64,000 bases of DNA from Tubulanus polymorphus. Taxonomy: Eukaryota; Animalia; Nemertea. The notes below the pieces were generated by a model. The model saw only the letters and a list, made by a program, of their open reading frames with translations, made no database searches and had not been told where the DNA came from. The position numbers and the translations under genes are program-made. Positions 22,012 to 61,779 of the stretch are shown here, piece after piece (position 1 is the first letter of the stretch; every line of letters begins with the position of its first letter). The DNA lies in NCBI RefSeq assembly GCF_964204645.1, contig NC_134032.1, forward strand, positions 6,064,275 to 6,128,274, in the 5' to 3' direction.

Positions 22012-23223
22012 TTTGGTTTACCTTTGTCAGCGATATGAAGTTGGCATTGAGCCAATACATGTAAAATCGCGGTACGTTTTTTTATGTGAGCATTTGTTTC
22101 ATTGGTTCTCGGTTTAAACGACGTATAATCGATGCGATTGAAGACATGGCGAACCTCCGTCGATGTACATGGTCAACTTTGTTAAAATTCTACGAAAAAC
22201 TGTTTTTGGCGGGAAAATTCTTAGCTCTCGCGTATAAAATTGCAATGACCTCGATTGGGGGGCGTCGTCTCTACGAGCGAATGTGATTGGCTGTTTTTGC
22301 TGCGAGGTATTAGACCGACACACGTACGCAGTTTACTCAGCTGACGCAATTAAATAGTTCGTTATAAAATGAATTATGTAGGCCTAGTTGTTGATATGTT
22401 ACATCAAAGCTTGGTTCAGTTTTGTGGTAGCGTATAGAATTATCAAAAAACGTCATCATCTTTCGAAAGCGGTTTATCGGGCCAAACGAAAGGATTCAAT
22501 AAAGCCAGATTCATGCGCAGGTATTTCACAATCAACTACATCGTCATTTACATCGCTCTCGGTAAGTCAAGTTTTCTTTCTATAAACTGTTAAAATTATA
22601 TTACTTGTGGCAGTGACAGCTTTCGAAAATCACATGTTTGTCATTCTAAGTGTTCAAGGGTTTGCTAAGTGTAGCTTTCATTTTACGAATTCTACACCGT
22701 GGTTTGTAATGGACGGATTATTATTAACACGTGCGATCAATCATGGCGGTGCCGTCATGAAACGTACTGTTGCCATTGTTAAGAGCAAGAAAGTGTCTGT
22801 CTCTACCCATTGTTTGTACGAGTCTAGCTAGGCCTAATTAGTCAATTTTTGTCTTTAGTTACTGATTTGTGGGAATTGAAAATCAGATTTAGGCGTACTG
22901 AACATTTTCACTAAATACATGGCCGTGGTCAGGTGAGTACGTCGCAGAAATAACAACATAGCCGTTACGGCTCAAATCGTTTTTCTGTAGTAGAATCTCT
23001 CAGATGATCACTCATTTTTCATCAACTTATTGTCGTCATTTATTTTGTTTGATAGGCTTATGTGTTGAGGTATTATGATATTTTAAGGGCTTGTTAGAAA
23101 CCGTGCAGCGCACGTGGTGCTGTATTATACAGCACCACGTGCGTATACAGTATATACTATCAATAGTATGTAGTATACATACACTTACATGCGTCGTGTC
23201 AGGAACTGACAGCAGTTCTCTTC

Positions 23224-25197: not shown

Positions 25198-25467
25198 AGT
25201 AATTGGAAGATGTGGGTTTCAGATCAGAGGACGAGAGGACGAGACACCACTCATCACCACAAGTAATTTTTTTCCTAATAAAAATGGGAGAGAGTGAGTA
25301 CCAGACAGAAAACAATAATGTTAATAAAAATCAATATTATTGCCCATATTGTAAAAAATACATTGATAAATCTATTAAACCTTATATGGAAAATGTTAGA
25401 AATTATATTGATTCACTAGAAATAAAAGATACAATTGAAATTTTAGAAATATTACGTAGTAAAATTG
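25198..25467 (+). repeat. Left TIR of Polinton A, extending into an internally deleted copy of the polB 5' end
   Basis: Reverse complement of ~42058-42639 with a deletion; NKNQYYC.YCKKYID is fused to KPYMENVRNYIDSLEIKDTIEILE. Confidence 0.85.
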
Positions 25468-25634
25468 TGACACACATAAACAGTGAGTGCGCGTAACAAC
25501 AGCTGCGCGTGTGTTAACTATACCTGGATAAATAGATGCTGTGAGGCTTGGGTGAGAACAGTTAATAGCGTGTTTGTTATATACAAGGGGAAGTAATCCC
25601 ACTCATCACCACAAGTAATTTTTTTTCCTTATAA

Positions 25635-25961
25635 ATGGGAGATAGAAAAGCATTCTTAGCAACAATAAATAACAGAATAAAACCAGCAAAAAAACAATTT
25701 GAAATAAAAAAGTTAGTTGATGTTACAAAAGAAATTGAACATAAAATATTGAAATTAGAAAAGATAAAAACTAAATATGGAGAGAAAGTATCAGCTAATT
25801 TAAGCTACTGTAATGTTAGTACATCACGAGAATTTAAAGTGTTTTTACCCGATAAACGGGTTTCATTGAGTATGGAGGAATTGAAAGATTTAGTAGGATT
25901 TAAAATAATATATCATGGGAAAAATGAAGACGGTCATCATGATTTAGAAATTGTTGATTAA
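25635..25961 (+). CDS. Small conserved Polinton protein (possible OB-fold/ssDNA-binding)
   Basis: 108 aa, TAAATG start; diverged homolog in copy B at ~19575-19917 (RYGNKL...FRTYLPDR...YKGKNEKGHNDIDFE); the function is inference. Confidence 0.65.
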   Translation: MGDRKAFLATINNRIKPAKKQFEIKKLVDVTKEIEHKILKLEKIKTKYGEKVSANLSYCNVSTSREFKVFLPDKRVSLSMEELKDLVGFKIIYHGKNEDGHHDLEIVD

Positions 25962-27043
25962 ATAAGAAATAAAAATAATGAATATCTATAATCCAAAATG
26001 ACCTTAGTTGTTTTATAAACAACTATAATCATACAGTACATCTGTTACATATTATTATAAGAGAGTGCTTCATTTGAATATTGATCAATCAAACAGGTGT
26101 TGCACAACGTTGTTGTTATATAATAAGCACGCAGTACATACAACACACACAAGCCAGTTAGCTGGTATTGAATTACTACGTTTTCATTAGTTGCTGAAAG
26201 CGAGGTTTATTTAAATTAGCTCAGTCGTGACGACAGGAGGATAGTCATCATTCTCTCGTGATTAAAAGGAATATTTCAATGTTTTTACGGTAAGTTTTTG
26301 CAAAACCACCCGACTTGACTCGCAGAGTTTTTAGGGGATAAGCATCCCGTTATTGAGAGGCGCCACGAGATACCTATCCCCAAGCATTTCTACTTACACC
26401 CCTGTGACCCACACCTCACCAATTCTCCTTCAATGGTTGACAGTCAACACATTATATTAAAGGCGCCTAATGCATTTCCTATCAACCCCTTACCCCCGAA
26501 AGGAGGATCGAAAGTCGAAACTGAAGGAGAACCACGGAGGGTGGACAAAGGTGCATTTTCGAAATGCCCCTGCAAGCCAAGCCCGGCGGCACTCCAGTGG
26601 TTGAATGAATTACCTTATATACTTAGCTAAAACACCTAAGTAAATGTTGTTGGTGCTAAAAAAATATGTGAAATTTGAAATTATAAATTATTCCAAATGA
26701 AAAGAATGTAAGAATGAAAACTGATAAATGAATTATGTATTTTTAACTTCATTATGATATAATTTTTAATCAAATTAGTAATCAATTACTATATTAATTG
26801 ATTAACAAATTCAAATTCAAATATTCAAATAAAAACAAAATAAATTAATAAAAATAATGAATATCTAGAATCCGAAATGACTTATCTGGACAATTTAATT
26901 GCTCCACATAGATAGACAAAAGTAGTGAGATATTCAATTATTTTTTTTGTTTTTTTTCTAAAATATTAATCCATTTGTTGGTCGAAGAAATGGAAGAGGA
27001 TTATAAATTATTAACCAATTTAGTAAAAAAATACGTATAATAA

Positions 27044-27718
27044 ATGGAACCAGAACAACCACAAACTATCAATATTACAAATAACACTGGTGTTATAAAC
27101 ATATACTACAAGAAGTGTTCTAAATGTGAATTAGATAAATCATTTACAGAATTTAGTAAGCGTAAGACTAGCAAAGATGGTTTTCAATATTGTTGTAAAA
27201 CTTGTTTTAAACTATATACCAAACAATACCGAGAAGATAATATAGAACATTATAATTATTATATGGCAGAATATATGAGAGAAAGATATCAAACAGATCT
27301 TAATTTTAGATTGAAACAATGCTTAAGGACTAGATTAACACAATTATTCAACAAAGAAACACATTCAGAAACATTAACTAATTTGTTGGGTTGTTCAGAT
27401 GAATTTCTCAAATCATGGATTATATTTCAATTCGATGATAAAATGAATATAGATAATTATGGGGATTATTACCACATTGATCATGTGTTACCAATATCTA
27501 AATTTAACATGAATGATGAATACAATAAAAGACCTTTTTGGGGTTGGAAAAATTTAAGGCCTTTAGAAAAGAAAGAAAATCAAATCAAATCTAATAAACT
27601 AGATTTACAGTTATATTCAGAACAGTTAACAAAGGCAAAGAAATTTATTGATCAATGGAACAATAATCCAAATAATGAACGATACGTTGAGGAATTTGAT
27701 ATCAAGGATCCGAAATGA
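27044..27718 (+). CDS. HNH endonuclease of the large-DNA-virus type with N-terminal Zn finger
   Basis: CSKC...CKTC; LLGCS..FL..W..FQF...NYG.YYHIDHVLPISKF...NLRPL...EN..KSNK; intact ORF. Confidence 0.85.
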   Translation: MEPEQPQTINITNNTGVINIYYKKCSKCELDKSFTEFSKRKTSKDGFQYCCKTCFKLYTKQYREDNIEHYNYYMAEYMRERYQTDLNFRLKQCLRTRLTQLFNKETHSETLTNLLGCSDEFLKSWIIFQFDDKMNIDNYGDYYHIDHVLPISKFNMNDEYNKRPFWGWKNLRPLEKKENQIKSNKLDLQLYSEQLTKAKKFIDQWNNNPNNERYVEEFDIKDPK

Positions 27719-27830
27719 CTTATCTGGACAATTTAATTGCTCCACAGTGATAGACAAAAGTAGTGAGATGGTGCCGTACGGCACCCACATGGTGATATTC
27801 AATTATTTTTTTTGCTTTTTTTCTAAAATA

Positions 27831-28199
27831 TTAATCCATTTTTTTTATTATCAATTTTGGAATTTCAGAAGTACTTTCATTTTTGATAGCAGTTGGTTCA
27901 GAATTACTAATATCATGAATTTTATTTGATTTCTTATACCAATTACACCCAATCAAAATGAATACAATTACAAATCCAACTGTAAAATATAAATATTTAT
28001 CAAATATTCTACTATCAGAAGGAGTAGAAATAACAATATTTTCACCATTTTTATTAACATTTTTATTACTTATTTTTTCTTTTACAGCTTTTTTATATTC
28101 TTGTGATTTAATTCCTAATTGTCGAGACCATTCAATTTGTTTCTGAGTTCTCGGTTTTTTCTTCACAGTTAATTCCTTCACTTCTTTCACCTCGCTCAT
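27831..28199 (-). CDS. Polinton protein with one transmembrane segment
   Basis: 122 aa; basic N-terminus; hydrophobic YLYFTVGFVIVFILIGC; TAAATG start. Confidence 0.65.
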   Translation of the reverse strand: MSEVKEVKELTVKKKPRTQKQIEWSRQLGIKSQEYKKAVKEKISNKNVNKNGENIVISTPSDSRIFDKYLYFTVGFVIVFILIGCNWYKKSNKIHDISNSEPTAIKNESTSEIPKLIIKKMD

Positions 28200-28737
28200 T
28201 TATTATAGAAATATTTTTACTTTCAATATTTGAAAATGTTATAACTCCAGTTGATAATAATGTCATAAATCCACCTAATTGAAATGATAAATATCCAATC
28301 CATTTATTTAATTCAGTCATAACTAAATAATCATTTTTTAAATCGGAATATAATCTATTTTCATTTTCAATTGGTAGTATATAATTACATAATTTACTAT
28401 AACCTTTTACTACATTTTCTGATATCGCGTCATTAATTCTAGCTGTTCTCGCGGCTTCATAAATCTTAAATAATCTAATAATTTCATCTGATTTCATTGT
28501 GTCTAATTCATTATAAGTTTAATTTTTACCGACAAAATTTTTACATTTTCCAGATGCTATTAATATTTCTAATTGATGTTTACAATAAAGATAATATTCA
28601 TAATTATTATTTGTTGTAACATTATTTAAAGCACCATCATCTGGAGTTAATTTTGTTTCTGTTATTCCTAAATCATCTAAAGTTTTTTCAATTGGAACAT
28701 CACCATTTTTAGATTTTATTTTCTTTTCACCTCCCAT
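28132..28737 (-). pseudogene. Single ~200-aa Polinton gene split by an in-frame TAA
   Basis: ...NFVGKN*TYNELDTMKSDE... reads in one frame across ORFs 28519-28737 and 28132-28497. Confidence 0.7.
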
Positions 28738-28769
28738 TTATATAACAAATAAATTAGTTGTGTGATGTT

Positions 28770-29030
28770 GCAACTAGAATTTAACTAGAATGTAACTAGA
28801 ATTCAACTAGATTAACAAGCTAGTTGAAATATTGTTGTGTTTGTTTATTTCTTGTTAAATCTAGTTGATTTTTGTTTCAACTACTAACAACTAGAATTCA
28901 ACTAGAATGTAACTAGATTTAAAATAGATTAACAAGCTAGTTAAAATATTGTTAAATCTATTTGATTTTTGTTACAACTACTAATAACTAGAATTCAACT
29001 AGAATTCAATTAGATTAACAAGCTAGTTGA
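28770..29030. repeat. Intergenic nested tandem/inverted repeat array (AACTAGA core)
   Basis: 11-bp units AACTAGAAT(TC/GT/TT), three blocks each ending AGATTAACAAGCTAGTT. Confidence 0.9.
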
Positions 29031-29032
29031 AT

Positions 29033-29641
29033 TTAAATAAATTCATATTTAAATGGGTGTTGTAATCTAAATAGTAATTTTGATCTTTTAATATTTTTCA
29101 ACTTATCCATATATTCATTATGTAAATCATGTGGAATAATATCATTTTCCTCAAGTACATTTTTCATCGATTTTCTATCTTTATTATAGAATAAAACTAG
29201 AAATCTAATGTTTTCTCTAAAGTCTTTAACAATTGAATTATATTTTTGATTTAAAACCCAAGTTGTTATCCCAAAATGTCTTCCAGAGAAAGCCAAATAA
29301 CATAACTCACTTTCTCTAACTTTTGAATCATGTAGATTAGCACAATCATCTACAATGAATAATGTATTTGATCCTTTATAAATATCAATTGCTATTTTAA
29401 TACAATTATCTAAATTTTCTTTAACTGTTTTAGGATCTAATATAATAAATTTATTATTTCTAGTAATGTTTCTATCATAAGTTTGATTAAATTCATATGT
29501 TGGACAAAATAATACTATATTATCAAAATAGTTTTTGTAAACAGTTTCTAATAAATTTAATATAAAATAAGTTTTTCCACAATTTGTTACACCAGAAATT
29601 AACATATTATGAGGCTCAAATATGAATAATTCCTTATTCAT
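29033..29641 (-). CDS. A32/FtsK-like genome-packaging ATPase
   Basis: ISGVTNCGKT Walker A, FIVDD Walker B, GRHFGITTWVLNQKY. Confidence 0.92.
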   Translation of the reverse strand: MNKELFIFEPHNMLISGVTNCGKTYFILNLLETVYKNYFDNIVLFCPTYEFNQTYDRNITRNNKFIILDPKTVKENLDNCIKIAIDIYKGSNTLFIVDDCANLHDSKVRESELCYLAFSGRHFGITTWVLNQKYNSIVKDFRENIRFLVLFYNKDRKSMKNVLEENDIIPHDLHNEYMDKLKNIKRSKLLFRLQHPFKYEFI

Positions 29642-30770
29642 TTATATATTTTTAATTTTACTTGATAATATCCATTCATTAAATTTATCTGGCCATCCAA
29701 CCCATTTTACTAAAGAATATTTTTTTCTTTTAACAGTTTTTGTTTTCAGTACTTTTTCAATTTTATATTCTTGTTCTAGATTTTCAATAGTTAAACTTAA
29801 TTCTTCTTCGTAAAAGTATCCATCAACTTCTTCACCATCTAAATCTTCTAATTTATAGACATATGGTTTTGTTGTTATTACCTTTTTTATTTTATATATT
29901 TCTCTAGTAAAATTTCGATCGTATCCTTTGTCAAATATCTTTTTATACTTAGAAATTCTAACATTTTGACCAACTTTAAATTTAGGTTCACCAAAATCAT
30001 CAACAAGAAATGCTCCATATAAATTATTCCAAACAATTTCAGCATTTTCAGGTTTTCTAGCATCAATAGGTTTCATTCCAATAGAAGAATGATAAGAATT
30101 ATTATATCCTTCTATAAATTTTGGTAAAACATCAATCCATTTATAAGTATTATTTGCTGTGAAATATTTTGACATTCTTGTTCTTAATGTTCTATTAAAT
30201 CGTTCAACAACTGCTGCTTTTTTATCCGATTTTGTCGAAAAATATTTAATATTATGAAAATCTAAAAGTCCATGAACTAATGAATTATCAAATTCTTTTC
30301 CATCATCAAATTGAATTTTTTCTGGTTTTAGTTTACCACCTGAAAGAAATTTTCTTAAAACATGTGATGTTTGTGCAGCATCTTTTCTATAAAGTGGGAA
30401 GCTCCATACATAACGACTAAAAATATCAATTATATTCAATATCCACCAATAATCATTATTATCTTTTTTAAGATTTTTCATATCAATTAAATCTCCTTGC
30501 CACTGTTGATCTACATAACTTACCATAGTTTTACGAGTTTTATATTTTCTAACAATTTTTTTTATGTGTTGTATATGTTGGTTGTTCTAACATAAATTCA
30601 TTTATATCTTTATATTTAACTAAATTTTGTGGGATTATCTTATCTAATTTATCTTGTTTTACTTTACGCCATATATTTTTAGTAGAAGAATAAGCAACCG
30701 AACTCTCAGGGTTGTAATATAAATTTCTTAAATATTGTTCTTTAGTATTAGGAGTTTTTTTACCACTCAT
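29642..30770 (-). pseudogene. Retroviral-like (RVE) integrase with C-terminal chromodomain; one extra A in an A8 run
   Basis: WQGDLIDM, QFDDGKEF, VVERFNRTL (D,D,E); YKIEKVL...LVKWVGWPDKFNEWI chromodomain; removing one A near 30560 joins 30549-30770 to 29642-30526 (HKKIVRKYKTRKTMVSY). Confidence 0.92.
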
Positions 30771-30800
30771 TTATATATCCTTAATTTTAACTTTATATTT

Positions 30801-32048
30801 CTAATATTGAATACTATCTAATTGTGAATTTACAATATTTAATTGTGCGTCAGATATAATATAAATGTGCATTTTGAAATTTAAGCTTCCTTTTTTCTTT
30901 TTCATAAATAATTGTATTCCATCTTTAGTGTTTTGTAGTTTTTTTCCAGAACCATGTAATGAATTATCCTCTGTTGTTCTAAAATCTAACCATAATGCAT
31001 ATTTATTACCGGTATAATAGTCAATTTGATTAATATTACAATTTTCAAATGATTTTATTTTTTCATTCATAAAATGTTTTTTAATTTCTACCCATTGATC
31101 TATCATTCTCATTCCTTGACAAAATATTTTATTCGCTATACCTTCGATAGTTATTTCTACTTTTGTTATTTCAGGATTATAATAATTATCTACCTTTATT
31201 GCGCCATTAGTATACGTTCCAATAGTAAAAAATATTAATATACCTTTAATAGATCTTCTAGGAAAGTTAATATTCTCATTAATTATTTCATCATTTGCAT
31301 TAATAGTTACAGTTTTAAATTTATCAATATAATCATATAATAATGAAAATCCTTGATTGTATTGAGTTTGAATTATACTTGAAATATTTTCATCAGTTAC
31401 TGTATCATATTCTAAACATATATTCGATAATTTATAACTCATATCTTTAACAACGCTAGATAATACAATTTCATTTACAGGAGCAAATGTTATCTCAAAT
31501 ATAATATCTTCTTGAATTGCGTATTTATATAAAGGGGCATTATTATTTATCAATTCAAAATCTAATGGAATTTTATATTTGCTTCCATATATACTTTTTA
31601 TCAATTTATCTACATCATTTGTTAATATTGCGCTATTAGCTTCTGATCTTAATTTATTTTGGTTTTCTGATTGGATGCCTTGAAATATCATATTATTTCT
31701 ATTTTCTTTTGTTAACCATAAATCTTTATAATACATGAATAAATTATAATCATCTAATGAGAAAACTGTTTCTGGACCAATCTTTATTGTTAACTTTTTA
31801 ATCAAATATCTTCCAACATTATCAACGACATAATTATTATTATTACCGATTACTTTTATATCAGCTGATAAATAAATACTATTTGGAACATAAAAAGTAT
31901 TTTGTGTTAATCTCGGAATTCTAACATATAAAGTTTCATCGGGATTAATATTTGAAGGGTTATGAGTAATTATATGATGTGATCTTTCTGCTTTAATAGC
32001 ATTAGATATTCTATGATTCTTAGAAGGATTGATATAACTCCCACTCAT
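30801..32048 (-). CDS. Major capsid protein (double jelly-roll)
   Basis: 415 aa, beta-rich; HNPSNINPDETLYVRIPRL...VPNSIYL; YKLSNICLEYD; position and size typical of Polinton MCP; intact. Confidence 0.8.
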   Translation of the reverse strand: MSGSYINPSKNHRISNAIKAERSHHIITHNPSNINPDETLYVRIPRLTQNTFYVPNSIYLSADIKVIGNNNNYVVDNVGRYLIKKLTIKIGPETVFSLDDYNLFMYYKDLWLTKENRNNMIFQGIQSENQNKLRSEANSAILTNDVDKLIKSIYGSKYKIPLDFELINNNAPLYKYAIQEDIIFEITFAPVNEIVLSSVVKDMSYKLSNICLEYDTVTDENISSIIQTQYNQGFSLLYDYIDKFKTVTINANDEIINENINFPRRSIKGILIFFTIGTYTNGAIKVDNYYNPEITKVEITIEGIANKIFCQGMRMIDQWVEIKKHFMNEKIKSFENCNINQIDYYTGNKYALWLDFRTTEDNSLHGSGKKLQNTKDGIQLFMKKKKGSLNFKMHIYIISDAQLNIVNSQLDSIQY

Positions 32049-32068
32049 TTATTTAACAAAAAAATTAA

Positions 32069-33493
32069 TTATTTATTTTTAATCATATTTACTAACCCAA
32101 AAATAATAGCACTTACAACTGTGATTAAAAATAAAATAATATGTTCAGCAACAAAGTTAAGAATATTACCTGCAGATTTCAATATAAAACCAACAATTGA
32201 TGCAATAACTCCTGGTAATGCTGCAGCAGATTTTTTAGATAGTTCCCATAAATATTTTGCTAATTTCTTTAAACCATCCTTAACTTTATCTTGTATAGAA
32301 TTATTACCTGGAGGTTTATCCGGTTTATTTGGAGTAGGAGTAGATTTCAAAGCATTTGATATTGCTAAACCAATTGTTGTAAATACCATAGTTATAGATG
32401 TTAGAATTGAAAGAATTGTTATTCCTTCTAATTTAAATAATAACTTTATTCTATCTTTTAATGATATTTCAGAATTTGGTTTAATCAACAAATCTTTAAA
32501 AATAACTTTTAATCTATTAATATTATAATCATATGATTTTAATAATAATTTAATTTCTTCTTTTTGTAATTCTATGTTATATTCTAAATCATCTATTTTT
32601 TTTTCTAAACGAAATTCTTTTTGCTTATATTCTATTTCATCAATTACTTGATGGTCTAAATCAGACTTTAATTTTTCTATTTCTTTATTTTTATCAGTTA
32701 ATTCTTTTTCTAAAGTTCTAATTTTAAAATCTCTTATACTTTTATTATGTGCAATTTTATCAGCTTCATTTCTTATACTAATAATTTCTCTAATTGCTTC
32801 ATCAGAAAATATATTTAAATCTTCTAATTGTTGATTTGTTGCATCAAGTAATCCATTTGGTAAAAGTTTTTCAGTTTGAACTTTATTTGATTTAAGTTTA
32901 CTAGTTTTGGAAGTTATATTCTGTTCAGAAGTTGTTTCTGTTTCTAAATTTTCATTAATTATCTTAAAAAAATTAGTATTTCTTTGTTTAAATTCTTTTA
33001 TATTATCATCTCTTTCTTTTTGTGTAACATCAGTTATAACATCATCAATGATTTTCTTAATTCTAGATTGTTCTAATAAATTAAAAGTTGATTGTGTTAT
33101 TATTTTATCACTACTTTTAAGATTTGAAATCTTAAAATAATAGTCACCTTTCAATTTCCAATAATATTCACCATTTAAATATTTCAAATCTTCTACTAAA
33201 TGATCCATACCTTTATTTGTTATATTGAATCCAGATTTTTCTAATATTGGTTTAAATTTATGAATAATTTCATTATAATTGTATTTTTTTTCTGTTATTT
33301 CTGGTACTTCATTTTCAATACTTATCTTTGAACGTGCTTTGTCAATAAATTGGGGTGTAGTTAAATTAGAATTATATGCTGTTTCATTTCCATCATTAAA
33401 ACTTGTTTCATCAAAATCAGGTGGTTGTTCATCAGTTATACCAGGTTCATCAAAAGGATCCATTCCAATATCTTCTCCACCTTCTACTTCCAT
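32069..33493 (-). CDS. Coiled-coil protein with C-terminal hydrophobic/amphipathic helices
   Basis: 474 aa; EGITILSILTSITMVFTTIGLAI and AAALPGVIASIVGFILKSAGNILNFVAEHIILFLITV; homolog in copy B. Confidence 0.8.
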   Translation of the reverse strand: MEVEGGEDIGMDPFDEPGITDEQPPDFDETSFNDGNETAYNSNLTTPQFIDKARSKISIENEVPEITEKKYNYNEIIHKFKPILEKSGFNITNKGMDHLVEDLKYLNGEYYWKLKGDYYFKISNLKSSDKIITQSTFNLLEQSRIKKIIDDVITDVTQKERDDNIKEFKQRNTNFFKIINENLETETTSEQNITSKTSKLKSNKVQTEKLLPNGLLDATNQQLEDLNIFSDEAIREIISIRNEADKIAHNKSIRDFKIRTLEKELTDKNKEIEKLKSDLDHQVIDEIEYKQKEFRLEKKIDDLEYNIELQKEEIKLLLKSYDYNINRLKVIFKDLLIKPNSEISLKDRIKLLFKLEGITILSILTSITMVFTTIGLAISNALKSTPTPNKPDKPPGNNSIQDKVKDGLKKLAKYLWELSKKSAAALPGVIASIVGFILKSAGNILNFVAEHIILFLITVVSAIIFGLVNMIKNK

Positions 33494-33509
33494 TTATATA
33501 ATAAAAAAA

Positions 33510-34892
33510 TTAAAATTTAAAATATAATATTCCTCCGATTACAATTCCTATACAAGTTATAGCTAATTTAGTATTTTCATGGGATTTATTATCATCATTT
33601 AGTTTAATTATATCATGTTGAATATTATCAGTTTCTATATTTTCTGATGTATTGTAATCTTTTATTTTAGAATCATTATTTAATTTAATATTCTTAGTTT
33701 TAGTTTCTGTTGATTGAATATGTTTTTTATTTTTTTCACCTTCCATTAATTTTGGAGCAGTAATAATCTTTTTATTTATATCATTTAATCCAAATGAATT
33801 ATTTATTGTTGCAGTTTTAATTAGATTATTATAACCAATTATGTTTCCCATCTTTAATACTAAATCATTAGAAATAATTAATAGATTAGGGCCTATAGAA
33901 TAATTTAGTCTTACATGAGATTTATCTAAATAATTTTGATATCTTATAATGTTTTCTGGAATCGATCTATTTTTATCATTATGTATGGAATCTTCAAATA
34001 AAACTTTAAATTGTTTTTGTGTATCGAATGATGTATTCAAATTTCCAATTATCGGTGATCTTGTTTCAACTTGTGATCCTAGAATACAAATCAAATAAAT
34101 TCTAATAGATTGATTTATTCTTTCTATACCTGATTTAGTAAAACCTTCACTATTTTCTAAAATAAAATAAACCCAACCATTATTGTTTTCTTGTTTTAAA
34201 TTATCATAAAATTTCGGTAATTTATTGAAATTTAATGTTTCTAAATCCTTTGTTTCTATTTTACCATAACCTAATTTATTATTATAGATATTATAAAAAC
34301 TATTAGATGGTATGGGAAGTGCACAATATTCTGCAATCTTTTTAGGGCAAGGAAGTGATCTTATTGTTCCAATTTTTGTTCTAAAATCAGAATTATTTAT
34401 ATCTATATTAAATTCATTACAAATTTTATAAAACTTTGATAAATTAATATTATTATCCAATTCTTTGAAATATCTAGATCCTGGTAAAGCACACTCTAAT
34501 TCATTGAATATTATTCTGATTTGAAAGTTTGTATGAAATCTAAATAAACTTTGAATTAGTTTATATTTAGAATTATTCAAATGATCATTCCAACTAATTC
34601 CACATCCTGTTGTTGCACAATAAACAGCAAAATTTAATTGGTTCTGCCAATACTTCATATTAGATTTTAATAACCATTGTTTTTCATCTTTCAATTTTTT
34701 AAAATTAATTAAATATACATGAAATATATTTTCCATCTTTGCATTAAAATTATTAGTTTCAGTAACATAAATTTCTAAATTAGTTAATGAATCTAAAACT
34801 TCATTTCTATATGTAATATCTTTATTAAAATCTATTGCTGGAATATTATATTTAATTGATTTATTATATTGGAAAGCTTTTGGAAACCCCAT
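33510..34892 (-). CDS. Conserved Polinton protein with C-terminal membrane anchor
   Basis: 460 aa; WQNQLNFAVYCATTGCGIS; terminal LAITCIGIVIGGILYF; homolog in copy B. Confidence 0.8.
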   Translation of the reverse strand: MGFPKAFQYNKSIKYNIPAIDFNKDITYRNEVLDSLTNLEIYVTETNNFNAKMENIFHVYLINFKKLKDEKQWLLKSNMKYWQNQLNFAVYCATTGCGISWNDHLNNSKYKLIQSLFRFHTNFQIRIIFNELECALPGSRYFKELDNNINLSKFYKICNEFNIDINNSDFRTKIGTIRSLPCPKKIAEYCALPIPSNSFYNIYNNKLGYGKIETKDLETLNFNKLPKFYDNLKQENNNGWVYFILENSEGFTKSGIERINQSIRIYLICILGSQVETRSPIIGNLNTSFDTQKQFKVLFEDSIHNDKNRSIPENIIRYQNYLDKSHVRLNYSIGPNLLIISNDLVLKMGNIIGYNNLIKTATINNSFGLNDINKKIITAPKLMEGEKNKKHIQSTETKTKNIKLNNDSKIKDYNTSENIETDNIQHDIIKLNDDNKSHENTKLAITCIGIVIGGILYFKF

Positions 34893-34908
34893 TTATATAA
34901 CTAAAAAA

Positions 34909-35343
34909 TTAATAATTTATTAATTCTTTTAATAATTTATCTTGTTCTTCAACTGTTATATGACCATTTAAACTTATTATATAATCTAGTGTGTTCTTTA
35001 ATTTATTTATTTCTTTTATATTAGTTTTGATTTTTTCTTTATTACTTTTTATATTTAATTTTGAACTTATACCAGTTAAAACACTTGAACTTAATCCTAA
35101 CACACCAATTGATATAGCTAAAGGTGTTAATGGACTGAATATTGCTAGAAATGTTATTACAGAACTAATTGTAACCGAACCACTTATAATCAAATAATAT
35201 ATAATTTTACTTTTTAAATATTTTTTCTTTTTTATCTTTAAGTCACTTTCAAATTCTAATATTTGTTTTTCTAAATATGTTTTTAATTTAGTTTTATTTA
35301 TATCATGAGGAATAATATCAATACTATCAACTTTATCTTCCAT
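34909..35343 (-). CDS. Two-TM membrane protein
   Basis: 144 aa with a central hydrophobic hairpin; TAAATG start. Confidence 0.7.
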   Translation of the reverse strand: MEDKVDSIDIIPHDINKTKLKTYLEKQILEFESDLKIKKKKYLKSKIIYYLIISGSVTISSVITFLAIFSPLTPLAISIGVLGLSSSVLTGISSKLNIKSNKEKIKTNIKEINKLKNTLDYIISLNGHITVEEQDKLLKELINY

Positions 35344-35362
35344 TTATTTAGAATAAAAATTA

Positions 35363-35785
35363 CTAATTAGTAAACTTATAAGCAACAAATATAACAATAA
35401 CAGTTCCACCTAAAATCCATATTATTTCATATTTCTGTTGTTCTTTACTCGGGGTATAATAATCTGATAATTTAGGTTTGTATAGATGTAATTTTTCTTT
35501 ATTGGTTACTGCGTTATATAAACTCATTGCATCATCAACTGATTGAAAATATCTGTGTGAAATCTTCTGATCATATAATTCTTTATTGATGTAATCCATA
35601 TAGTTTTGTCTCTTTTCTCTATATTCTTCTGCAGCTTTATTGTATTTCTCTAACGCTAAATTATGTCTTCTTTGTTCTCCTAATGAACTATTTTTATCAA
35701 TATGTTTAAATAAATAACCACCACCAGTAAATGCTAAAGCGTTAACAATTGCCGATCCTATAATAGTTATAATTGCAGAAGCCAT
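35363..35785 (-). CDS. Small membrane protein with hydrophobic N- and C-termini
   Basis: 140 aa; IIGSAIVNALAFTGGGYLF...EQRRHNLALE...IIWILGGTVIVIFVAY. Confidence 0.75.
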   Translation of the reverse strand: MASAIITIIGSAIVNALAFTGGGYLFKHIDKNSSLGEQRRHNLALEKYNKAAEEYREKRQNYMDYINKELYDQKISHRYFQSVDDAMSLYNAVTNKEKLHLYKPKLSDYYTPSKEQQKYEIIWILGGTVIVIFVAYKFTN

Positions 35786-35809
35786 TTATTTAACAAAAAA
35801 ATTATGCAT

Positions 35810-36031
35810 TTATATGGGAGGAATATATTTTTGTTTTTCCAAATAATCAATAGTTAAATTAGATAAAGTAACTGCTAACGTTAATTTCAAAATATCATTG
35901 ATATCAAATCTATCAACATTAACATTTCCCATTTTGAATACTTTTTTTAATACCATTGAATAACCAACCGTTCCAACTGATAGTAATGCGCCATTATATA
36001 ATCCAGTTATTATCCACTTATTATCACTCAT
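35810..36031 (-). CDS. Small hydrophobic Polinton protein
   Basis: 73 aa; TAAATG start abutting the upstream stop. Confidence 0.65.
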   Translation of the reverse strand: MSDNKWIITGLYNGALLSVGTVGYSMVLKKVFKMGNVNVDRFDINDILKLTLAVTLSNLTIDYLEKQKYIPPI

Positions 36032-36388
36032 TTATTTATCAAAAAAATTACTATCTTCAAAATATTTAGTTATCTTAGTGATGATTATTTCAACATTTAT
36101 TTTATTACTAGTTTCATTTGTATATATTTCAATTATTATTTTTTTAATATCATCGATTATAAAATATTCATCTAATTCATAAAATCTTAAAGATTCTCTA
36201 ATTAAATTAGTAATCTTTTCTACATTTAAAGTTTCTTTATCTATTGTTGTTTCATACTCAAATGTTGTTTCTTTAGAAAATACAACATTTTTGATTTGTG
36301 TAATTACATCATTAATGTTAAATTTCATTTCTTTCTCACGTTTAAAATCAAATCCAAAACATATACTCGGTCCAACAGTTATATTCAT
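36032..36388 (-). CDS. Hypothetical Polinton protein
   Basis: 118 aa; homolog at 20397 in copy B. Confidence 0.75.
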   Translation of the reverse strand: MNITVGPSICFGFDFKREKEMKFNINDVITQIKNVVFSKETTFEYETTIDKETLNVEKITNLIRESLRFYELDEYFIIDDIKKIIIEIYTNETSNKINVEIIITKITKYFEDSNFFDK

Positions 36389-36404
36389 TTATATAATGAA
36401 AAAA

Positions 36405-37163
36405 TTACTCTTTACATCTTATAACTAATTCATAAATTACAGGGAAATTATTTAAATCAATTAAGTATCCATTATGATTTCTAATTTCTAATCTAAAATT
36501 ATTAAAACGAGGAATGCATGGTTTGAAATCACATTCTGTTAAATTATAATTTATTTGTGTTCCAAATTCTTTAACATTCTTCAATGGTAAAATGTTTAGT
36601 AAACCAGAATTACAAGTTATATCTTTAGTTGCTTCGAATGTTTTTGTAGCATCAATTAAATTGCAATAAATATAAAAGTGTGTGTAAGGTATTAAGTTTG
36701 GTGTAACTTCTACGTTTCCTGTAGCAGTAAATGGTTTAATTCCTAACATTTTAGCTAATGGTTTGTTTACCATAAATGCTTGTTTGTTTCCTTCATCTAA
36801 CTTTATTTTAATTTTATCAGAACTATCACTTTTTATGAATCTAATTAAAAATTTATCTTCACTTCTAAGTTTTAATCGTGCTCTTCTGTTAATTTCTTGT
36901 GCTAATTTTTCTAAATTATATAATCCCGGTTTTAATAATAGATTATACCATTTATCTATATTTTCTACATAAATCATAAACAATCTATGTTCAATACTTT
37001 TATCTGATATATTATAAAAAGAATTACATAAACTTATATTAACTAATTTTAAATCAACACAATTCTTAAATTCTCTATCTAATTGTACTAGTAAATTATG
37101 TGATTCATAATTTTTAAGTCTTCTAGAATCAACAAATATTCTGTATTCTTTTAATTCTACCAT
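36405..37163 (-). CDS. Minor capsid protein (penton, single jelly-roll)
   Basis: IFVDSR...VQLDREFKN...LVNISLCNSFYNIS; YIYCNLI; FRLEIRNHNGYLIDLNNFPVIYEL. Confidence 0.8.
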   Translation of the reverse strand: MVELKEYRIFVDSRRLKNYESHNLLVQLDREFKNCVDLKLVNISLCNSFYNISDKSIEHRLFMIYVENIDKWYNLLLKPGLYNLEKLAQEINRRARLKLRSEDKFLIRFIKSDSSDKIKIKLDEGNKQAFMVNKPLAKMLGIKPFTATGNVEVTPNLIPYTHFYIYCNLIDATKTFEATKDITCNSGLLNILPLKNVKEFGTQINYNLTECDFKPCIPRFNNFRLEIRNHNGYLIDLNNFPVIYELVIRCKE

Positions 37164-37231
37164 TATTTATAACATAAAAAAATTACCGCTCATCACTAAA
37201 AATTAATTTTAATAAAATTTTTCCTAAATAA

Positions 37232-38536
37232 ATGGATGAGAAGATAGCATGCGAAATTTGTGGTGAACTTCTAAGAAAAAGTAATAAGGCTCGACATATG
37301 AAAAAACATAATGAAAATTATAAACCCCCTAAAATAAACTGCCCAAAATGTAATAAATTATTCTCAAGAAATTATGTTAAAAAACATTCAGAGAAGTGTA
37401 GAATTAATGGCGCAACGGCTAATGTTGATAGTAATTCTGCTGAAGTTGAACCTGAAGTTATTTGGAAAAGACCTTTCTTATTCTATATTATATAGGATAA
37501 TATAAAAGATCATTTCTGTGAGCCTTGTCGAATGAAATATAACCCCGAAAATATAGAAGATTGGGAGAATCATCAATTTCGTAAAGTACATATAGATAAA
37601 ATTTCTAATAAATTTGAAACTGAATTTAATGAAAGAAAAGATAATTTATTAGAAAAAATAAAATATGAGAAAACGTTACCAGATAATGAAGAAACAGTTG
37701 AAAAGTTAGAAAAACAATATAATGAATTAACAAGAAAAACATATTATTGTAAATATTGTAAATTGATTATTACAACAAGTAATTCAAATCTACATAATAG
37801 AACAATAAAACATAAAGAAAACGTAAGAAAATACCAAGAGCTTAATGAAGATCTATTACCAATAAATTATAAACGAAAATGTCCACAATGTAGTTATGCG
37901 ACCTTAAGACAAGAAGGTACTGTGTTATTTTGTAATGAATGTGGATGGCAAAAGAATTTATGGGGTGAAGAAAAAACTAGAAATTTTCTCATAGATCCAA
38001 AATTAAATTATCTTGATGAAATTTTTAAAATATTTTCTATAGAAGATCATACACCAGAATATATGCAATGGCTTGAAAAAATGAAAATAATAGAAAATGA
38101 AAATGGTGAAATAACTAAAAGAGATATTATAAAAACAATTATTCCACCAACATTTAACACAAAACAAAAGAAAATGTATTTATATTTATTATTTAATGAT
38201 TATTATGAAAAACCTAAATTAACAGAAGAAGATATGAAAAATATAAAAAAAATATTCAAATAAATATTAATGTATCATTTGGAAAATAGAATAACAGATT
38301 CAATAAATTATGAATTCTTTTTAAATAAGATTGTAAATTATTTAAACCTAGATATTATAATTCCATTTGATGAATTAACAAACAAAAAGAAACAAAGAGA
38401 GCGAGATGAAATGTGGAACAAGATAGAACTTTATTTAAATGAGAAAAATGGAATGGAAGAAGAACCTGAACAATTAAATGAAAATGAAGAAGACAATAGT
38501 GATTTCGAGTTTGATGATACTGATTTTATGTTTTAA
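37232..38536 (+). pseudogene. Zinc-finger plus VLTF3-like (poxvirus late transcription factor 3) gene with two in-frame stops
   Basis: ORFs 37232-37495, 37532-38263 and 38270-38536 share one frame; C2H2 fingers, CPQC...CNECG ribbon, C-terminal INYEFFLNKIV...KKKQRERDEMWNKI resembling VLTF3. Confidence 0.65.
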
Positions 38537-41500
38537 TAGCCATAAGGTAATGTTTTTATACCATCATCTAAAATATGCCTTTTAACATCAAATGGATTTA
38601 AACTAGTTTTTTCAACTTCACTAATGTACATCTCATGATCTTCTGATCTTAAACAATTCATTTTGTGTTTCATTACAATTGATTTATATAAACACTTTAT
38701 ATAATCTTGAAATTCTATATGTTTATCAACCACATGTTTTGTTATTCCTTTTAACTTTTTAGCTTCATGATCTTTTGTTCTGTAACTATACATTTTACTT
38801 CTTATCCCAATAAATTCAATCATTTCATCACCTCCTAATTCATCTTTAAACTTACCAGGAATCTTTTTATTATCATTGCTAAATAGTTCATGATCTTTGG
38901 GGTAATTGCTAAAATCAAAATAATGTTTTAATGTTTTTAAGTCTTTTGTTATATCATTTGTCTTGATTTTTAGTATGTAACTGTCAGTATCAAAATATAA
39001 TATTTCAATATGTTTTTCCCCAAAAAGTGGTTGTAAAACATTATAATAAAAATCATACATTAATAATTTTGATACTTCTAAAACAGTCGAACCAATAAAT
39101 ATAGGTTTATTAAATTTCATTGACGTTCTTTTTACCGCGGTTAAATAATCCTCAAACCTTTTATTTCCTAAATGTCTAGGACTTGATTGTAGGTGTCTTA
39201 ATCTTTCATAATTATTCACTAATTCAATATCATTTCTATTTCTAATATTTTCACATGTTTTTCCATAAAACTTATTATTCATCAATTTAAAAAAATCTTT
39301 TTCGAAATCAGTTTTTGATATGGTTCTCTGTTGAGTATTGAAATCTATATATTTTTCTAACCACTTCGATTGATTAAATTCAATATATCTATGTACTTTC
39401 TTTAATTTCATTCCTTGTTTTAGATAAAATTTTAACATTCTATAATGAACAATATAATTGTATTTATTATTTTGAGTAAGTATTAATTTTTCTGTAAAAA
39501 CATGACTTTTCGGTTTTATTTTCTTCTGGTATTCACTTAAATAACTATCATCTACAGTTAAATGTTCTGGGCAATAAGGTAAGTTTCTTGTTTTAAACTT
39601 TATATTTTCAGGATATTCTAAATCAACTACAAAGAAATAACCAATTGGTGCTTCATCTTACAAACTAATAATTGCGCTTTCCCAATCAGTTTTATCACCA
39701 TTTTCAACTTCTGTTAATATAAAATTTTTATATGGTTGAGGTTGCATCATTGCCCAACCATATAAATTATTAGCGTCAATATATAATAATTTATATTCAT
39801 CATTTGCTTTAAAATACCTATCTCCCATAACACCACTAATTCCACCTCTAATTGATTTTTCAAATAATAAAACCATATCTGGTTCTTTTAATAAATCTAA
39901 TTCTACATTTGTATATTTTAAACCACATTGCCAGGTTAAACCAGGACTAGAGTAGCAATAACAAGGATCAACATTAAAATGATTCAAATTAACTTCTCTA
40001 AATTTTTCAAATATGTCAGCCAATATCATAACATCTGATTTTAAATATAAATCAACTAATTCACCATGATTTTTCATCTTAAAATGGTCCCAAATATTTA
40101 ATGTTCTATTAAAAACTTCGTCTTTCACATACTCCTCTTTTAATTGATCATAAAATTGATCTTTTAATAATTCTGTTACATTAAAATCATTGTGTGTTTT
40201 ATAAAATGAATAAGGAATTGCGCCTTTATATCTCAATAATTTAAAATCTTGGTCATTTGGATAATAATATCGAGTTATAATAAAATCATTATCAACTAAT
40301 GATTTTGATAAATTATCTAATGAACTTGCTAGAAATCTATAAGAATCTAAAAATCTAATGCAACCAAATTGAAATGAAATATAATTTTCAGATGTTTTAG
40401 CTAATAGTTTAAAATCATATTTTCTTACATTTGCTTCATTCATAGCATTATATTCTTCTATTTCTTGATTAATTGCACCCAATTTTCCCGATAATTGTTT
40501 TATAAATAGATGGGTATCATATCCTGATAAATTATGAAATAATATTGGTACGAAATTTACTTTTTTAGCTTGTAAATTGCAATCTTCATGAGCAGCTCCA
40601 CGATATTTTGAATTTAAATGATCATGATCTCTAACTCTTTTATCAAATGAATGAAAACGTTTTTCACAATAACAACAATGAGTTGCATAATTAAAATCAA
40701 TTTCATCTTCTTTTGTCATAACAATTCTTTTATTTTTGTTTAATAATTTTGTAAAATCACTTTCTAATTCAATCATTTTATCACAAAAATCATTAACTAC
40801 ATTTTCACCTCTAAAAGAAATATATTGACTTTCATATAATTCAGGATAATTTGATTTTATATAAATTCCATAAGCAGCAGCTCTTTGATGAACTTTTTTA
40901 ATTGTATTTATAATTGGTGGGTCTTGAATTATATCTTCATTTAATTCACTTCCTTTATCCATTGATTTTAATAATTGCTTTTTGTTATATATTTCTTTTC
41001 TATCTTGATCAGTTAATTCTTTATTCAACGATTCAAAATCCCCATAAATTACAAATGGAACAATATTTTTAAATTTATGATTAGTAAATTTCAATTTATA
41101 ATCTTTTTCTGTTGGCATTATTAATTTACAAAAATCTTTATTATCACATAATTCTTTATGTTTTAATAATGTATTCTCAGTCATAAATTTAGATAAACAT
41201 TTTCTACATAGATAAATTTTACGATGATGATCACTTTCTGTTCTAAAGAATAAATCAATTTGTTTTAACCACATATAATGTTCATTTTCATCTTTTTTTA
41301 TAATATAACAAATCTATAGCATTTTCATCATCATAATATTCTGTTAAATATAAAGCTTCCAATGTATAATCTTTAATATCTTCACCTTTTTTCTTTGGTA
41401 ATTGCATTAATTCAAATACATTTATTTTTAAATTATTAACTTTTTCTATTTTAGGAATCATTTTTATAGTTACTGGATATTGATCAATTTTATATAATGT

Positions 41501-42523
41501 TTCATATTTCCGATAATCTGTTATTCTACAAACATTTTCCTGTGATGGATGTAAGCAACTAATAATTGCCCACAGAAAACATTTGTTGTCTTCATTTTTA
41601 ACATTTATAATTGCTTTTGATAAAAATGGTAATTTAATATAACTTGATGCTTTCATATCTTTTTCTATTATAAAGTTTGAATTATTTTTAAACATTTTAT
41701 TACTTTTTGATGTTTTATTTCTTTTTGTATTATAAACATTTAAATCTAAATATATAATTTCATTCAATGTTAAACCAGAACCCTCAAAATATCTTTCTTC
41801 AATATGACGTTTAAATTCATTTAATATTTTTTCTAACTTCTCTTTTATTTGTGTTTTTGAAATTATTTCTTCAGAGAGTGTTTGAATATTATAATTCATT
41901 TTTTCTTCTGACTTTATAAAACTTACTTTCCCAGAGATACTAATTTTTGGATATTCAACATCTGTTATCAAATCTAGTATTTTTTCTATTATTTCATTAA
42001 ATTTACTATAATCTTCTATTGTTGTACCTTTAAAAAATCTAAATATAATAGCTGGACCAATTTTACTATGTAATGTTTCTAAGATTTCAATTGTATCTTT
42101 TATTTCTAATGAATCAATATAATTTCTAACATTTTCCATGTAAGGTTTATTTGAAATGGATTTTGTTTTTGAAGTTGATTCTTTTACTTGTTGAGGTTTA
42201 TTATCAAAATAATCTTTTCCTAAAACATTATTACTCAAATTTTGATGGTGTTTTTGTGATTCGAGATGTCTATTATAATTCCTTTTTACTATAAATTCAT
42301 TACAAACTTCACATTTTATTTCATCCACATTCATATTTTCTAATCGTTCTTTTCTTTCATTAGAATTTTCTGGAGTTTCAAAATCTATTACATTTTTTAT
42401 ATGATTTGTAGTTTTTTCATGTCGTGTTTTATTAGATGTATCGATGTATTTTTTACAATATTGACAATAATATTGATTTTTATTGACATTATTGTTTTCT
42501 AGTTGGTGTTCATTCTCCCCCAT
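38533..42523 (-). pseudogene. polB: Protein-primed family B DNA polymerase (~1330 aa) with OTU-like and EndoVII-like domains; one frameshift and one nonsense codon
   Basis: Exo IYGDFES, FHNLSGYD, YLKSDV; pol YIDANNLYG, KLMNNKFYGK, YFDTDS; insert CCYC...DHDHL...AHEDCN; NEDNKCFLWAI...HYMW; extra A in A7 at 41293-41299 and in-frame TAA at 39658-39660. Confidence 0.95.
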
Positions 42524-42854
42524 TTATTAGGAAAAAAAATTACTTGTGGTGATGAGTAGGAAAAAAAAAATTACTTGTGGTGATGAGAGGTGTCTCGTCC
42601 TCTCGTCCTCTGATCTGAAACCCACATCTTCCAATTACTCCTGACAATATCACATGTAATGCTTCATAACTGACATGATCATACTACATACTACTTGACA
42701 AAATAAGACTGATATAAATCAACTGCCTACAATGATGCACATTAGACAGAACAATTATGCCATTATAAACTAAACAGTCTTTCAATATCAGACAAAACAC
42801 AAATTGACTCACTAACAACATAATTAAATCTGGGTTAAGGACAAATAAACAGGT

Positions 42855-54785: not shown

Positions 54786-55509
54786 ATAGCTACCAAGCAG
54801 CGATGACGGGTTTTCTGCAAAGCCATTCAGAATGATGGGAATTGTAGTAAATTGAAATACCGATACATAGAATAAAATGCATTGACAGATTCTGACCTAA
54901 TATGCAACCACTGTGTAAACGTCAAATATGATTCAGCTTTGAAACCGAACACATGCGGACGTACAATGAACAAATATGAATTTATTTGACCAGGCATTTA
55001 ATTTGGCATTCTAACATCATGATACTGTATTATCACCATGCTTAAAAATGGATCTGTCCAATTGAGAACTCATCTTAAGCACCTGCTGAGTCGATAGATT
55101 GAGTGAATTTACAGATAAGAGCGTATTATGATTTAGAATAGAATTATGAAGTTAATGTTTTTATGGAAATATTTGAATAAATACATATATTGTAGTGTAG
55201 ATTCAATCAATAAATTATGAATTGATTTGGTCTGGATTTCCGGCTGATATTGATTTTGGCTTTATGGATTACAAATTCTATAGTGATAAACAATTGATAC
55301 CTGCAACATGTGTGTAAATCAAACCTATTCCACTAGTTGCGTGTGTTTCCTAATAAACGGGAGAGTGACTCTTGATCTGAGTTATTAGAAAAATTATGTT
55401 CATTTAGATATAGAAATTCATTTTTTTTTTGAAAATTCTGTAATAATATTTGTTCTGTCCTAATTTTTATTACTGTATGAACCAGTGATATGCTTTGTAA
55501 ATATGATGT

Positions 55510-57130: not shown

Positions 57131-57384
57131 AATAATCTTTACTTAAAATATCATTATTAATATTTATTAAAATTAAGAAAAACTGTTTTAAAATCTAAAT
57201 TATTTTTATTTTTATTTTCCTTTTTTTGTTAAAAGAACAACAGAATTTAAAGTGAATAAAATAATTAGCATTGAAAACGCGAATTATACTCTAACAGTAC
57301 TGTACATGACTTATGCCAAAATCTTTCTGTCGATTTTTAGTTAGGCAGTTTTACCGCAGGGGGCGCGTGCATCCCCTAATCAAA

Positions 57385-61638: not shown

Positions 61639-61779
61639 TTCTTTTCTTTCATTGGAATTTTCTGAGTTCCTGCCTGGAACTCACTGTCTCCCATTTATAA
61701 CGAAAGAAAATTACTTGTGGTGATGAGTGATTTGTCGATGTCTCGACCTCTGATCTGAAAAAAGCATATTCCAATTACT
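61639..61779 (-). repeat. Right TIR and polB start of a decayed Polinton copy
   Basis: CCCATTTAT...AAAATTACTTGTGGTGATGAG...CCTCTGATCTGAAA...TTCCAATTACT matches 42519-42639. Confidence 0.9.

Follow-up and report, generated by a model that had tools for sequence, protein, structure and literature searches.

A poxvirus-late-like motif at nearly every gene start of a nemertean Polinton, a candidate promoter for the polymerase of a helper virus

Introduction

Whether the Polintons of animal genomes are expressed as autonomous viruses or as satellites of other viruses is an open question, on which a 64,000-nucleotide stretch of the nemertean Tubulanus polymorphus (NCBI RefSeq assembly GCF_964204645.1, contig NC_134032.1, positions 6,064,275 to 6,128,274 of the forward strand; hereafter the window, whose own numbering is used throughout) bears directly: which RNA polymerase would read a Polinton whose gene starts look like those of late poxvirus genes? 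The window holds one such element, copy A, together with a decayed second copy, copy B. A preliminary description had noticed that copy A genes begin at TAAATG, often behind a run of T, and had proposed transcription by a machinery of the poxvirus or nucleocytoplasmic large DNA virus (NCLDV) type. We report here that this motif is real and very likely a functional promoter, as predicted from its position, spacing and conservation, and we weigh which polymerase it may serve.

Late promoters of vaccinia virus have been described as TAAAT(G) that overlaps the start codon and is preceded, at a distance of ten bases, by a conserved T (PMC11980589), or as a T core, a 5–7-bp spacer and TAAAT(G/A) (PMC5294985), and polymerase slippage at them gives rise to 5' poly(A) (PMC4542343), as far as the accessible parts of these papers go. 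In the accessible text of PMC6428243, virophages and their giant virus have late promoter motifs in common; transcription by outside machinery has been argued there for mavirus and Sputnik, and in the part seen of 10.1101/2025.10.09.676808 for endogenous virophages.

Results

A two-part motif marks the gene starts of copy A

Copy A contains 25 ATG-initiated open reading frames (ORFs) of at least 70 aa, three of which were dropped before counting (25284, a decayed duplicate of the start of the protein-primed DNA polymerase B, pPolB; 27675 and 32013, overlapping or antisense); none of the three has TAAATG. The hexamer was found at 15 of the 22 remaining starts and at 33 of the 639 other ATGs (p = 1e-13), while out-of-frame ATGs of the coding strands carried it in 20/294 cases. 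Six of the seven starts that lack it belong to downstream fragments of four genes, broken here but intact in relatives, so the earlier count of 15 of 16 genes holds, with each of the 15 listed ATGs opening a long ORF; the sixteenth gene (37163) starts at TAAATA-ATG. Stop-start packing does not account for this pattern: in shuffled sequence TAA precedes 1080 of 17101 first ATGs after a stop (6.3%), against which p is about 1e-13, and the TAA serves as the stop of the upstream gene at only 2/15 starts. These are 29641 and 36031, where the motif lies inside the upstream coding sequence; the preliminary description had noted one such case. Over the whole window, TAAATG is scarcely enriched (122 occurrences, 107 +/- 10 expected), which places the signal in the position of the hexamer at gene starts.

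The sequence upstream is equally constrained. Counting back from the first T of TAAAT, A occupied -15, -14 and -1 in 15/15 starts and T occupied -11 in 14/15; T at -10 was present in 12/15 starts compared with 10 of 33 non-start TAAATG (p = 0.002), and at least five T within -13..-7 in 11/15 compared with 1/33. Nine starts fit T5+ N4-7 TAAATG, close to the estimate of about ten made earlier, and four have an A-rich block in place of the T-run. Of the 22 occurrences of the combined pattern AA-N12-A-TAAATG in the 64 kb, 17 mark starts in copy A or copy B. Copy B has kept TAAATG at 19938, 20397 (previously placed at 20398), 53070 and 61694.

The motif is not confined to one class of genes. It precedes genes with nothing co-oriented upstream (25635, 37232, 42523), and pPolB, the integrase and a gene resembling the poxvirus late transcription factor VLTF3 share it without a separate promoter class, likewise in a close relative (locus L003). 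Nine of ten co-oriented intergenic gaps of copy A measure 0–30 nt. Internal AATAAA is not depleted in the coding strands (45, 44.9 expected), and it is likewise undepleted in AT-rich Polintons without the motif (67, 71.6 expected), so this measure does not discriminate between readings; TTTTTNT and internal TAAAT showed no depletion in coding strands either.

Measured against the descriptions of vaccinia late promoters, TAAAT(G/A) overlaps the start codon in 16/16 genes (15 TAAATG, 1 TAAATA), and a T-rich core with T at -10 and a 5–7-nt spacer is found both in copy A and in its relatives.

The motif is conserved in a Polinton clade across base compositions

We fetched 83 loci by capsid alignment and placed them in a quick capsid tree (SH-aLRT support only). 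In the 14 loci that form a clade with the element of the window (SH-aLRT 98; 20–44% GC; 51–77% capsid identity), TAAATG stood at 51/59 starts. For position counts three partial loci were added, two by identity and L076 after its start had been seen, with TAAATG at 5/8 starts. By comparison, 61 other Polinton loci had it at 4/390 starts, and a 13-locus AT-rich outgroup subset had TAA-ATG at 1/52 and AAA-ATG at 28/52. T at -10 recurred in 40/52 distinct starts of the relatives versus 31/97 controls, and the two letters before TAAATG were TT, AT, CA or TC in 10/52. TAAAT lay within 12 nt of the ATG in 59/67 starts, versus 56/67 with TAAATG directly at it; where TAAATG is missing, TAAAT is thus often found a few bases upstream, which is the behaviour expected of a DNA initiator. 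Consistently with the earlier suggestion that the motif is not mere translation context, its spacing is fixed and it carries a T-run, and AT-rich Polintons without it use AAA-ATG; the comparison with other ATGs, shuffles and related Polintons leaves composition and stop-start coupling unable to explain it.

Five distant Polintons picked for showing the motif (L053, L055, L057, L061 and L080; 29–35% capsid identity) had TAAATG at 10/12 starts, but their T-run is weaker and they may represent a second origin; in the tree L080 sits on a long branch and the other four were left unplaced. Capsid, ATPase and VLTF3-like queries recovered no relatives from IMG/VR. Several assemblies labelled Bartonella contain a 54%-identical capsid (P0046); it probably stems from DNA of a host or vector and hints at terrestrial members of the clade.

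A different signal was observed on neighbouring branches, where six loci had TATA within 20 nt of 25/42 starts versus 81/1046 other ATGs; a T-run preceded this TATA by about 10 nt in 14/25 starts versus 22/81 controls (p = 0.014). Two distant groups showed a weaker TATA enrichment without T-run (36/146 and 13/113). In L015, L044, L063 and L064 (and in L016 and L060) the form is ATTT(T)C, about 10 nt, then TATA directly before the ATG, resembling African swine fever virus (ASFV) late promoters, in which TATTT occupies -15..-11 and TATATA the start according to the accessible part of PMC5294985; these lineages do not form one supported clade. By these published descriptions, on which the poxvirus match rests, the element fits vaccinia late promoters and the neighbouring lineages fit those of ASFV.

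TAAATG starts also occur in iridovirus-like genomes

IMG/VR was scanned with the element's own motif, full flanks being available for 80 of 117 loci among the matches listed. Most were single matches, TAAATG stood at no fewer than 108 of 960 starts among the matches listed, and no poxvirus was recognised among the top-ranked loci of those listed; no helper was found in these scans. What the scan brought up was a set of genomes like those of invertebrate iridoviruses, two contigs of which were first found by the motif. Eighteen such loci (L206-L217, L219, L221, L222, L227, L229, L234) had TAAATG at 84/238 ORF starts versus 279/7902 other ATGs; because all of them flank one gene they are not independent, and among iridoviruses the sampling is confined to loci of the invertebrate-iridovirus-like kind. 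Stop-start coupling of TAAATG was absent from the 12 loci checked. The hexamer alone therefore does not name the helper or its family.

The two forms differ in detail. The iridovirus-like form AATAAATG was present in 67 of 72 distinct starts versus 30 of 67 Polinton starts (p = 2e-10), so that Polintons do not follow the strict iridovirus pattern; conversely, a T-run preceded 14/72 iridovirus-like and 38/67 Polinton starts (p = 9e-6), and T at -10 was seen in 26/72 of the iridovirus-like starts. TAAATG at starts is thus not specific to poxviruses, yet the T-run form still separates the element from the iridovirus-like loci, and the full geometry of the motif, as a sequence pattern, favours the poxvirus type.

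The TAAATG start of invertebrate iridoviruses is itself a candidate late initiator; the iridovirus sections of PMC5923455 and PMC5294985, the parts of these papers covered here, do not describe it.

The element carries a VLTF3-like gene and no detected RNA polymerase

The VLTF3-like product of copy A matches Pox_VLTF3 of Pfam at 23.6 bits, below the cut-off of 25, and an intact relative reaches 0.93 to Pox_VLTF3 clusters in Atlas; a structure model from this family (pLDDT 45.7) was too poor for a fold search. The family is small, with three clusters found by HMMER among 1.84 billion representatives, whereas a word-based sequence search returned no relatives. Of the 83 loci fetched by capsid, L003 alone gave a match, and this locus bears the motif, also at the start of its VLTF3-like gene; since most loci are fragments, absence elsewhere is weak evidence either way. 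VLTF3 genes have also been reported in coral Polintons (PMC11131425, accessible part). No RNA polymerase gene or subunit was detected among the ORFs of copy A or the part of the relatives' ORFs that was scanned. The element therefore combines what a virophage-like way of life would lead one to expect, namely no detected RNA polymerase of its own and one late-type motif before replication and structural genes alike.

Architecture of copy A and its surroundings

Copy A spans 17,442 bp (25198-42639) at 24% GC, in flanking DNA of 38% GC. Its outer ends read AGT...ACT and are flanked by CTTGAC and CCTGAC, a 6-bp target duplication with one mismatch. Pfam matches comprise pPolB (PF03175), the rve integrase (PF00665) with a chromodomain and the A32 ATPase (PF04665); the 415-aa capsid protein was modelled as a double jelly-roll (pLDDT 88.8; Foldseek E 6e-18 to the capsid of PBCV-1, a Paramecium bursaria chlorella virus), and Atlas suggested the product of the 37163 gene to be a penton. 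With its terminal inverted repeats (TIRs), 6-bp duplication, pPolB, retroviral-type integrase, packaging ATPase and double-jelly-roll capsid, copy A is a Polinton/Maverick; no family match to a cysteine (maturation) protease was found among its proteins by Pfam. Copy A is broken in four of its genes, namely those for integrase, pPolB and the VLTF3-like protein and the one starting at 28737. Coordinates are given in Table 1.

Table 1. Genes and repeats of copy A and remnants of copy B in the window
Feature	Position	Strand	Remarks
Copy B (decayed), left pieces	19657..22014	+	TAAATG starts at 19938 and 20397
Left terminal inverted repeat, copy A	25198..25273	+	76 bp, 99% complementary to right repeat
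108-aa gene	25635..25961	+	T-run TAAATG start; no co-oriented gene upstream; 73% identical relative in L003
224-aa gene	27044..27718	+	A-rich TAAATG start; weak HNH match in a relative
122-aa gene	27831..28199	-	A-rich TAAATG start
One gene, two ORFs by in-frame stop	28132..28737	-	TAAATG start
A32-type packaging ATPase	29033..29641	-	Motif within integrase 3' end; TAA is also the integrase stop
Retroviral-type integrase with chromodomain	29642..30770	-	Two ORFs by frameshift; TAAATG start
Major capsid protein, double jelly-roll	30801..32048	-	T-run TAAATG start
474-aa conserved Polinton gene	32069..33493	-	T-run TAAATG start
460-aa conserved Polinton gene	33510..34892	-	T-run TAAATG start
144-aa gene	34909..35343	-	T-run TAAATG start
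140-aa conserved Polinton gene	35363..35785	-	T-run TAAATG start
73-aa conserved gene	35810..36031	-	Motif inside upstream coding sequence; TAA is also the upstream stop
118-aa gene	36032..36388	-	T-run TAAATG start
Likely penton (minor capsid)	36405..37163	-	T-run, then TAAATA-ATG; counterparts in copy B and L003 at TAAATG
Zinc-finger and VLTF3-like late transcription factor	37232..38536	+	Two in-frame stops; T-run TAAATG start
pPolB	38533..42523	-	Three ORFs (broken); T-run TAAATG start adjoining terminal repeat
Right terminal inverted repeat, copy A	42564..42639	-	76 bp
Copy B (decayed) pieces	53067..57889		474-aa gene homolog from TAAATG 53070; pPolB fragments
Terminal repeat of copy B	61681..61779	-	pPolB-type motif at 61694

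DNA reads of a second sample that carries the same species label, mapped over 24000-26800, had a depth of 7–13 on the adjacent flank versus 272–1421 on the left end of copy A, where 394 loose-ended reads of low agreement also terminate; the depth jump and the disagreeing ends indicate that the element is present in at least tens of copies, inserted at many sites. One contig of run X1 tracks the flank up to the left end (24709-25198) and continues with 25 unmatched letters, possibly an empty site. Within the left end (25231-25645) the terminal motif is duplicated: a decayed pPolB start lies at 25284 (TAAAA-ATG), the intact copy drives 25635, and the reads show variable joints in this segment. 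Degenerate tandem repeats with a period of about 100–117 bp and CAACTAGAATT units lie at 28771-29021, in the sole long internal gap. In both 29642-30770 and L003 (7141-8469; capsids 75% identical) the integrase breaks at a comparable position, and it is unsplit in L001 and L005; L003 also has a deoxynucleoside kinase gene behind the same motif (10340-10981).

Copy B appears to be split by later insertions stacked over 31 kb, among them copy A and a Helitron (42855-49491). The three ORFs of the Helitron encode Rep, PIF1 helicase and endonuclease domains, and its named relatives, at about 50% identity, come from bivalves and a sea cucumber, which by itself would suggest a marine invertebrate host. 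At 58635-60956 copy B also contains remnants of a reverse transcriptase and endonuclease of LINE type.

Discussion

The polymerase, integrase and VLTF3-like genes all stand behind a late-type signal, so the element cannot start its own cascade and is probably transcribed by a post-replicative machinery from outside. That it depends on a viral polymerase not its own, in any of the variants considered (poxvirus-type, iridovirus or other linear element), is, in our judgement, reasonably probable, and the element probably propagates by parasitising a large DNA virus, as far as its gene content and promoters indicate. More specifically, a cytoplasmic large DNA virus whose late transcription is of the poxvirus type may co-infect the cell and supply the RNA polymerase that the two-part signal serves, a tentative reading to which we grant a little less than an even chance. 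The signal (AA with a T-run, about 6 nt, TAAATG) would act as a post-replicative promoter, and integrated copies would stay silent in uninfected cells. On infection by the helper, element DNA would reach the helper's factory. All genes, those for polymerase, integrase and capsid included, would be expressed there at the same time, with initiation in the AAA of TAAAT and slippage producing 5' poly(A) leaders; copying, packaging and re-integration of the element would follow. The VLTF3-like protein, whose own gene lies behind the motif, would not set the cycle going but boost or divert the late machinery of the helper. Being broken in four genes, copy A would need intact sister copies.

Several points weigh against this. 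The integrated copy is nuclear and the polymerase cytoplasmic, a separation that the model would have to bridge. The match to vaccinia was made against published descriptions; the invariant AA at -15/-14 is absent from those descriptions, and the four A-rich starts are not T-rich. We know of no described poxvirus of marine invertebrates, and none was recognised among the top-ranked loci of the scans, which surfaced iridovirus-like TAAATG starts instead. An element that encodes its own VLTF3-like factor could be partly self-driven, and VLTF3 genes are also present in other Polintons (PMC11131425, accessible part). The original proposal of pox/NCLDV-type transcription is thus supported in part: the vaccinia-late geometry, the conservation within the clade and the motif before replication genes speak for it, while the iridovirus-like TAAATG and the VLTF3-like gene leave room for other polymerases.

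Among these, an autonomous nuclear element, in which host RNA polymerase II (Pol II), guided by the VLTF3-like factor, would read an inherited NCLDV-style promoter, is unlikely: the VLTF3-like gene, restricted to motif-bearing L003 among the loci matched, and the nuclear access shown by tens of integrated copies speak for it, but with that gene and pPolB behind the same motif nothing starts the cascade, and gaps of 0–30 nt leave no room for a TATA box and a leader. A helper of the invertebrate iridovirus kind, or one akin to it, would presumably transcribe late genes in the cytoplasm with a polymerase of its own. In its favour are the TAAATG starts of the 18 loci, which surfaced in the scan with the element's motif, and iridovirus-like particles have been reported from marine invertebrates (PMC5923455, accessible part); we nevertheless judge it quite unlikely, given the different form of its starts, the dependence and narrow sampling of the 18 loci, and the TAATG/CATTA hairpins of the type of IIV-6 (an invertebrate iridescent virus), which are not enriched in the element (3 and 7, versus 4.5 and 4.4 in shuffles). 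A polymerase supplied in trans by another cytoplasmic linear element or by a polymerase-bearing sister Polinton has its model in the yeast pGKL virus-like elements: these possess a terminal protein, bring along both a DNA and an RNA polymerase, and initiate at TAAAN, from which 5' poly(A) leaders result (PMC6211774, accessible part). We regard it as most improbable, as the ORFs scanned contain no RNA polymerase subunit and the yeast ATNTGA box was seen, by eye, in 1 of 16 upstream 40-mers.

The motif might also be a host-type signal, be it a core promoter, a poly(A) signal, a trans-splice acceptor or a short-leader translation context, which we consider very unlikely. AATAAA is indeed present in 8/15 starts and TATAAA in 7/15, in genes packed as tightly as in an operon; yet AG lies between T-run and TAAATG in only 2/15, the first genes of units bear the motif, the relatives include starts of the motif that do not spell AATAAA, and AT-rich Polintons without the motif begin with AAA-ATG. 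Moreover, a TATA box overlapping the ATG would make Pol II start its RNA inside the gene. An origin by chance, through stop-start packing at 24% GC, could appeal to how common the hexamer is in the window, but the fixed spacing, the retention of the motif at 40–44% GC and its absence from AT-rich outgroups, added to the start enrichment and shuffle baseline, refute it, and its probability is negligible.

If the element does parasitise a large DNA virus, protection of the host is a possible by-product, as a putative antiviral effect. A broader generalisation, that animal Polintons include inherited virophage lineages, each promoter-tuned to a different family of cytoplasmic large DNA viruses (poxvirus-like for this clade, asfarvirus-like for the neighbouring lineages) and with their copies acting as an inducible, heritable antiviral defence, strikes us as speculative and rather unlikely. 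Should the reading of the motif as a promoter for a helper's polymerase hold, the provirophage strategy of protists would extend into animal germlines, a VLTF3-like protein in a satellite would gain a concrete role, and promoter type would become a means to infer unseen large DNA viruses of invertebrates; on the broader generalisation, promoters would predict which helpers exist, for instance an undiscovered poxvirus-like virus of marine invertebrates.

Comparison with known systems

The element shares with vaccinia late and intermediate promoters the overlap of TAAAT(G) with the start codon, the T at -10 and the 5–7-nt spacer, its A-rich starts resembling the intermediate class; unlike vaccinia late promoters, it has the invariant AA and carries the motif at replication genes as well. 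With the described Polintons/Mavericks (adintoviruses; PMC8502044) it has in common the TIRs, the 6-bp duplication, pPolB, rve integrase, A32 ATPase and double-jelly-roll capsid, a likely penton and many integrated copies, and it differs from them in having one poxvirus-late-like motif at nearly every start and no maturation protease by Pfam. The word 'promoter' is absent from PMC8502044, PMC11131425 and 10.64898/2026.10.13.758929, and no publication describing this start motif in Polintons was found among titles and abstract openings (subscription journals and bioRxiv supplements being outside reach). The yeast elements pGKL1/2 are likewise AT-rich linear DNAs with terminal-protein replication and a TAAA-type initiator; they differ, in the accessible part of PMC6211774, by their own RNA polymerase, the ATNTGA box, and the absence of integration and of such a capsid module.

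Poxvirus hyperparasites are already known among insect Polinton-like viruses (PLVs; PMC11296320, accessible part), without promoter analysis: 'promoter' and 'TAAAT' do not occur in the main text of that paper, nor 'promoter' in its supplement. These entomopoxvirus-associated PLVs resemble the present element as Polinton relatives proposed to be hyperparasites of animal poxviruses; compared by description, they are of about 12 kb, associated with occlusion bodies, and have divergent capsids, a tyrosine recombinase or no integrase, and a protease. Mavirus, Sputnik and the endogenous mavirus-like elements (EMALEs) are a functional parallel, being small integrating DNA viruses without RNA polymerase whose genes stand behind a late-type promoter of a large virus; they have protist hosts, mimivirid helpers and other motifs (TCTA in Cafeteria roenbergensis virus, CroV). 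Helper dependence has been shown experimentally for virophages, and is deduced from promoters and gene content for the nemertean element, whose capsid belongs to the Polinton lineage.

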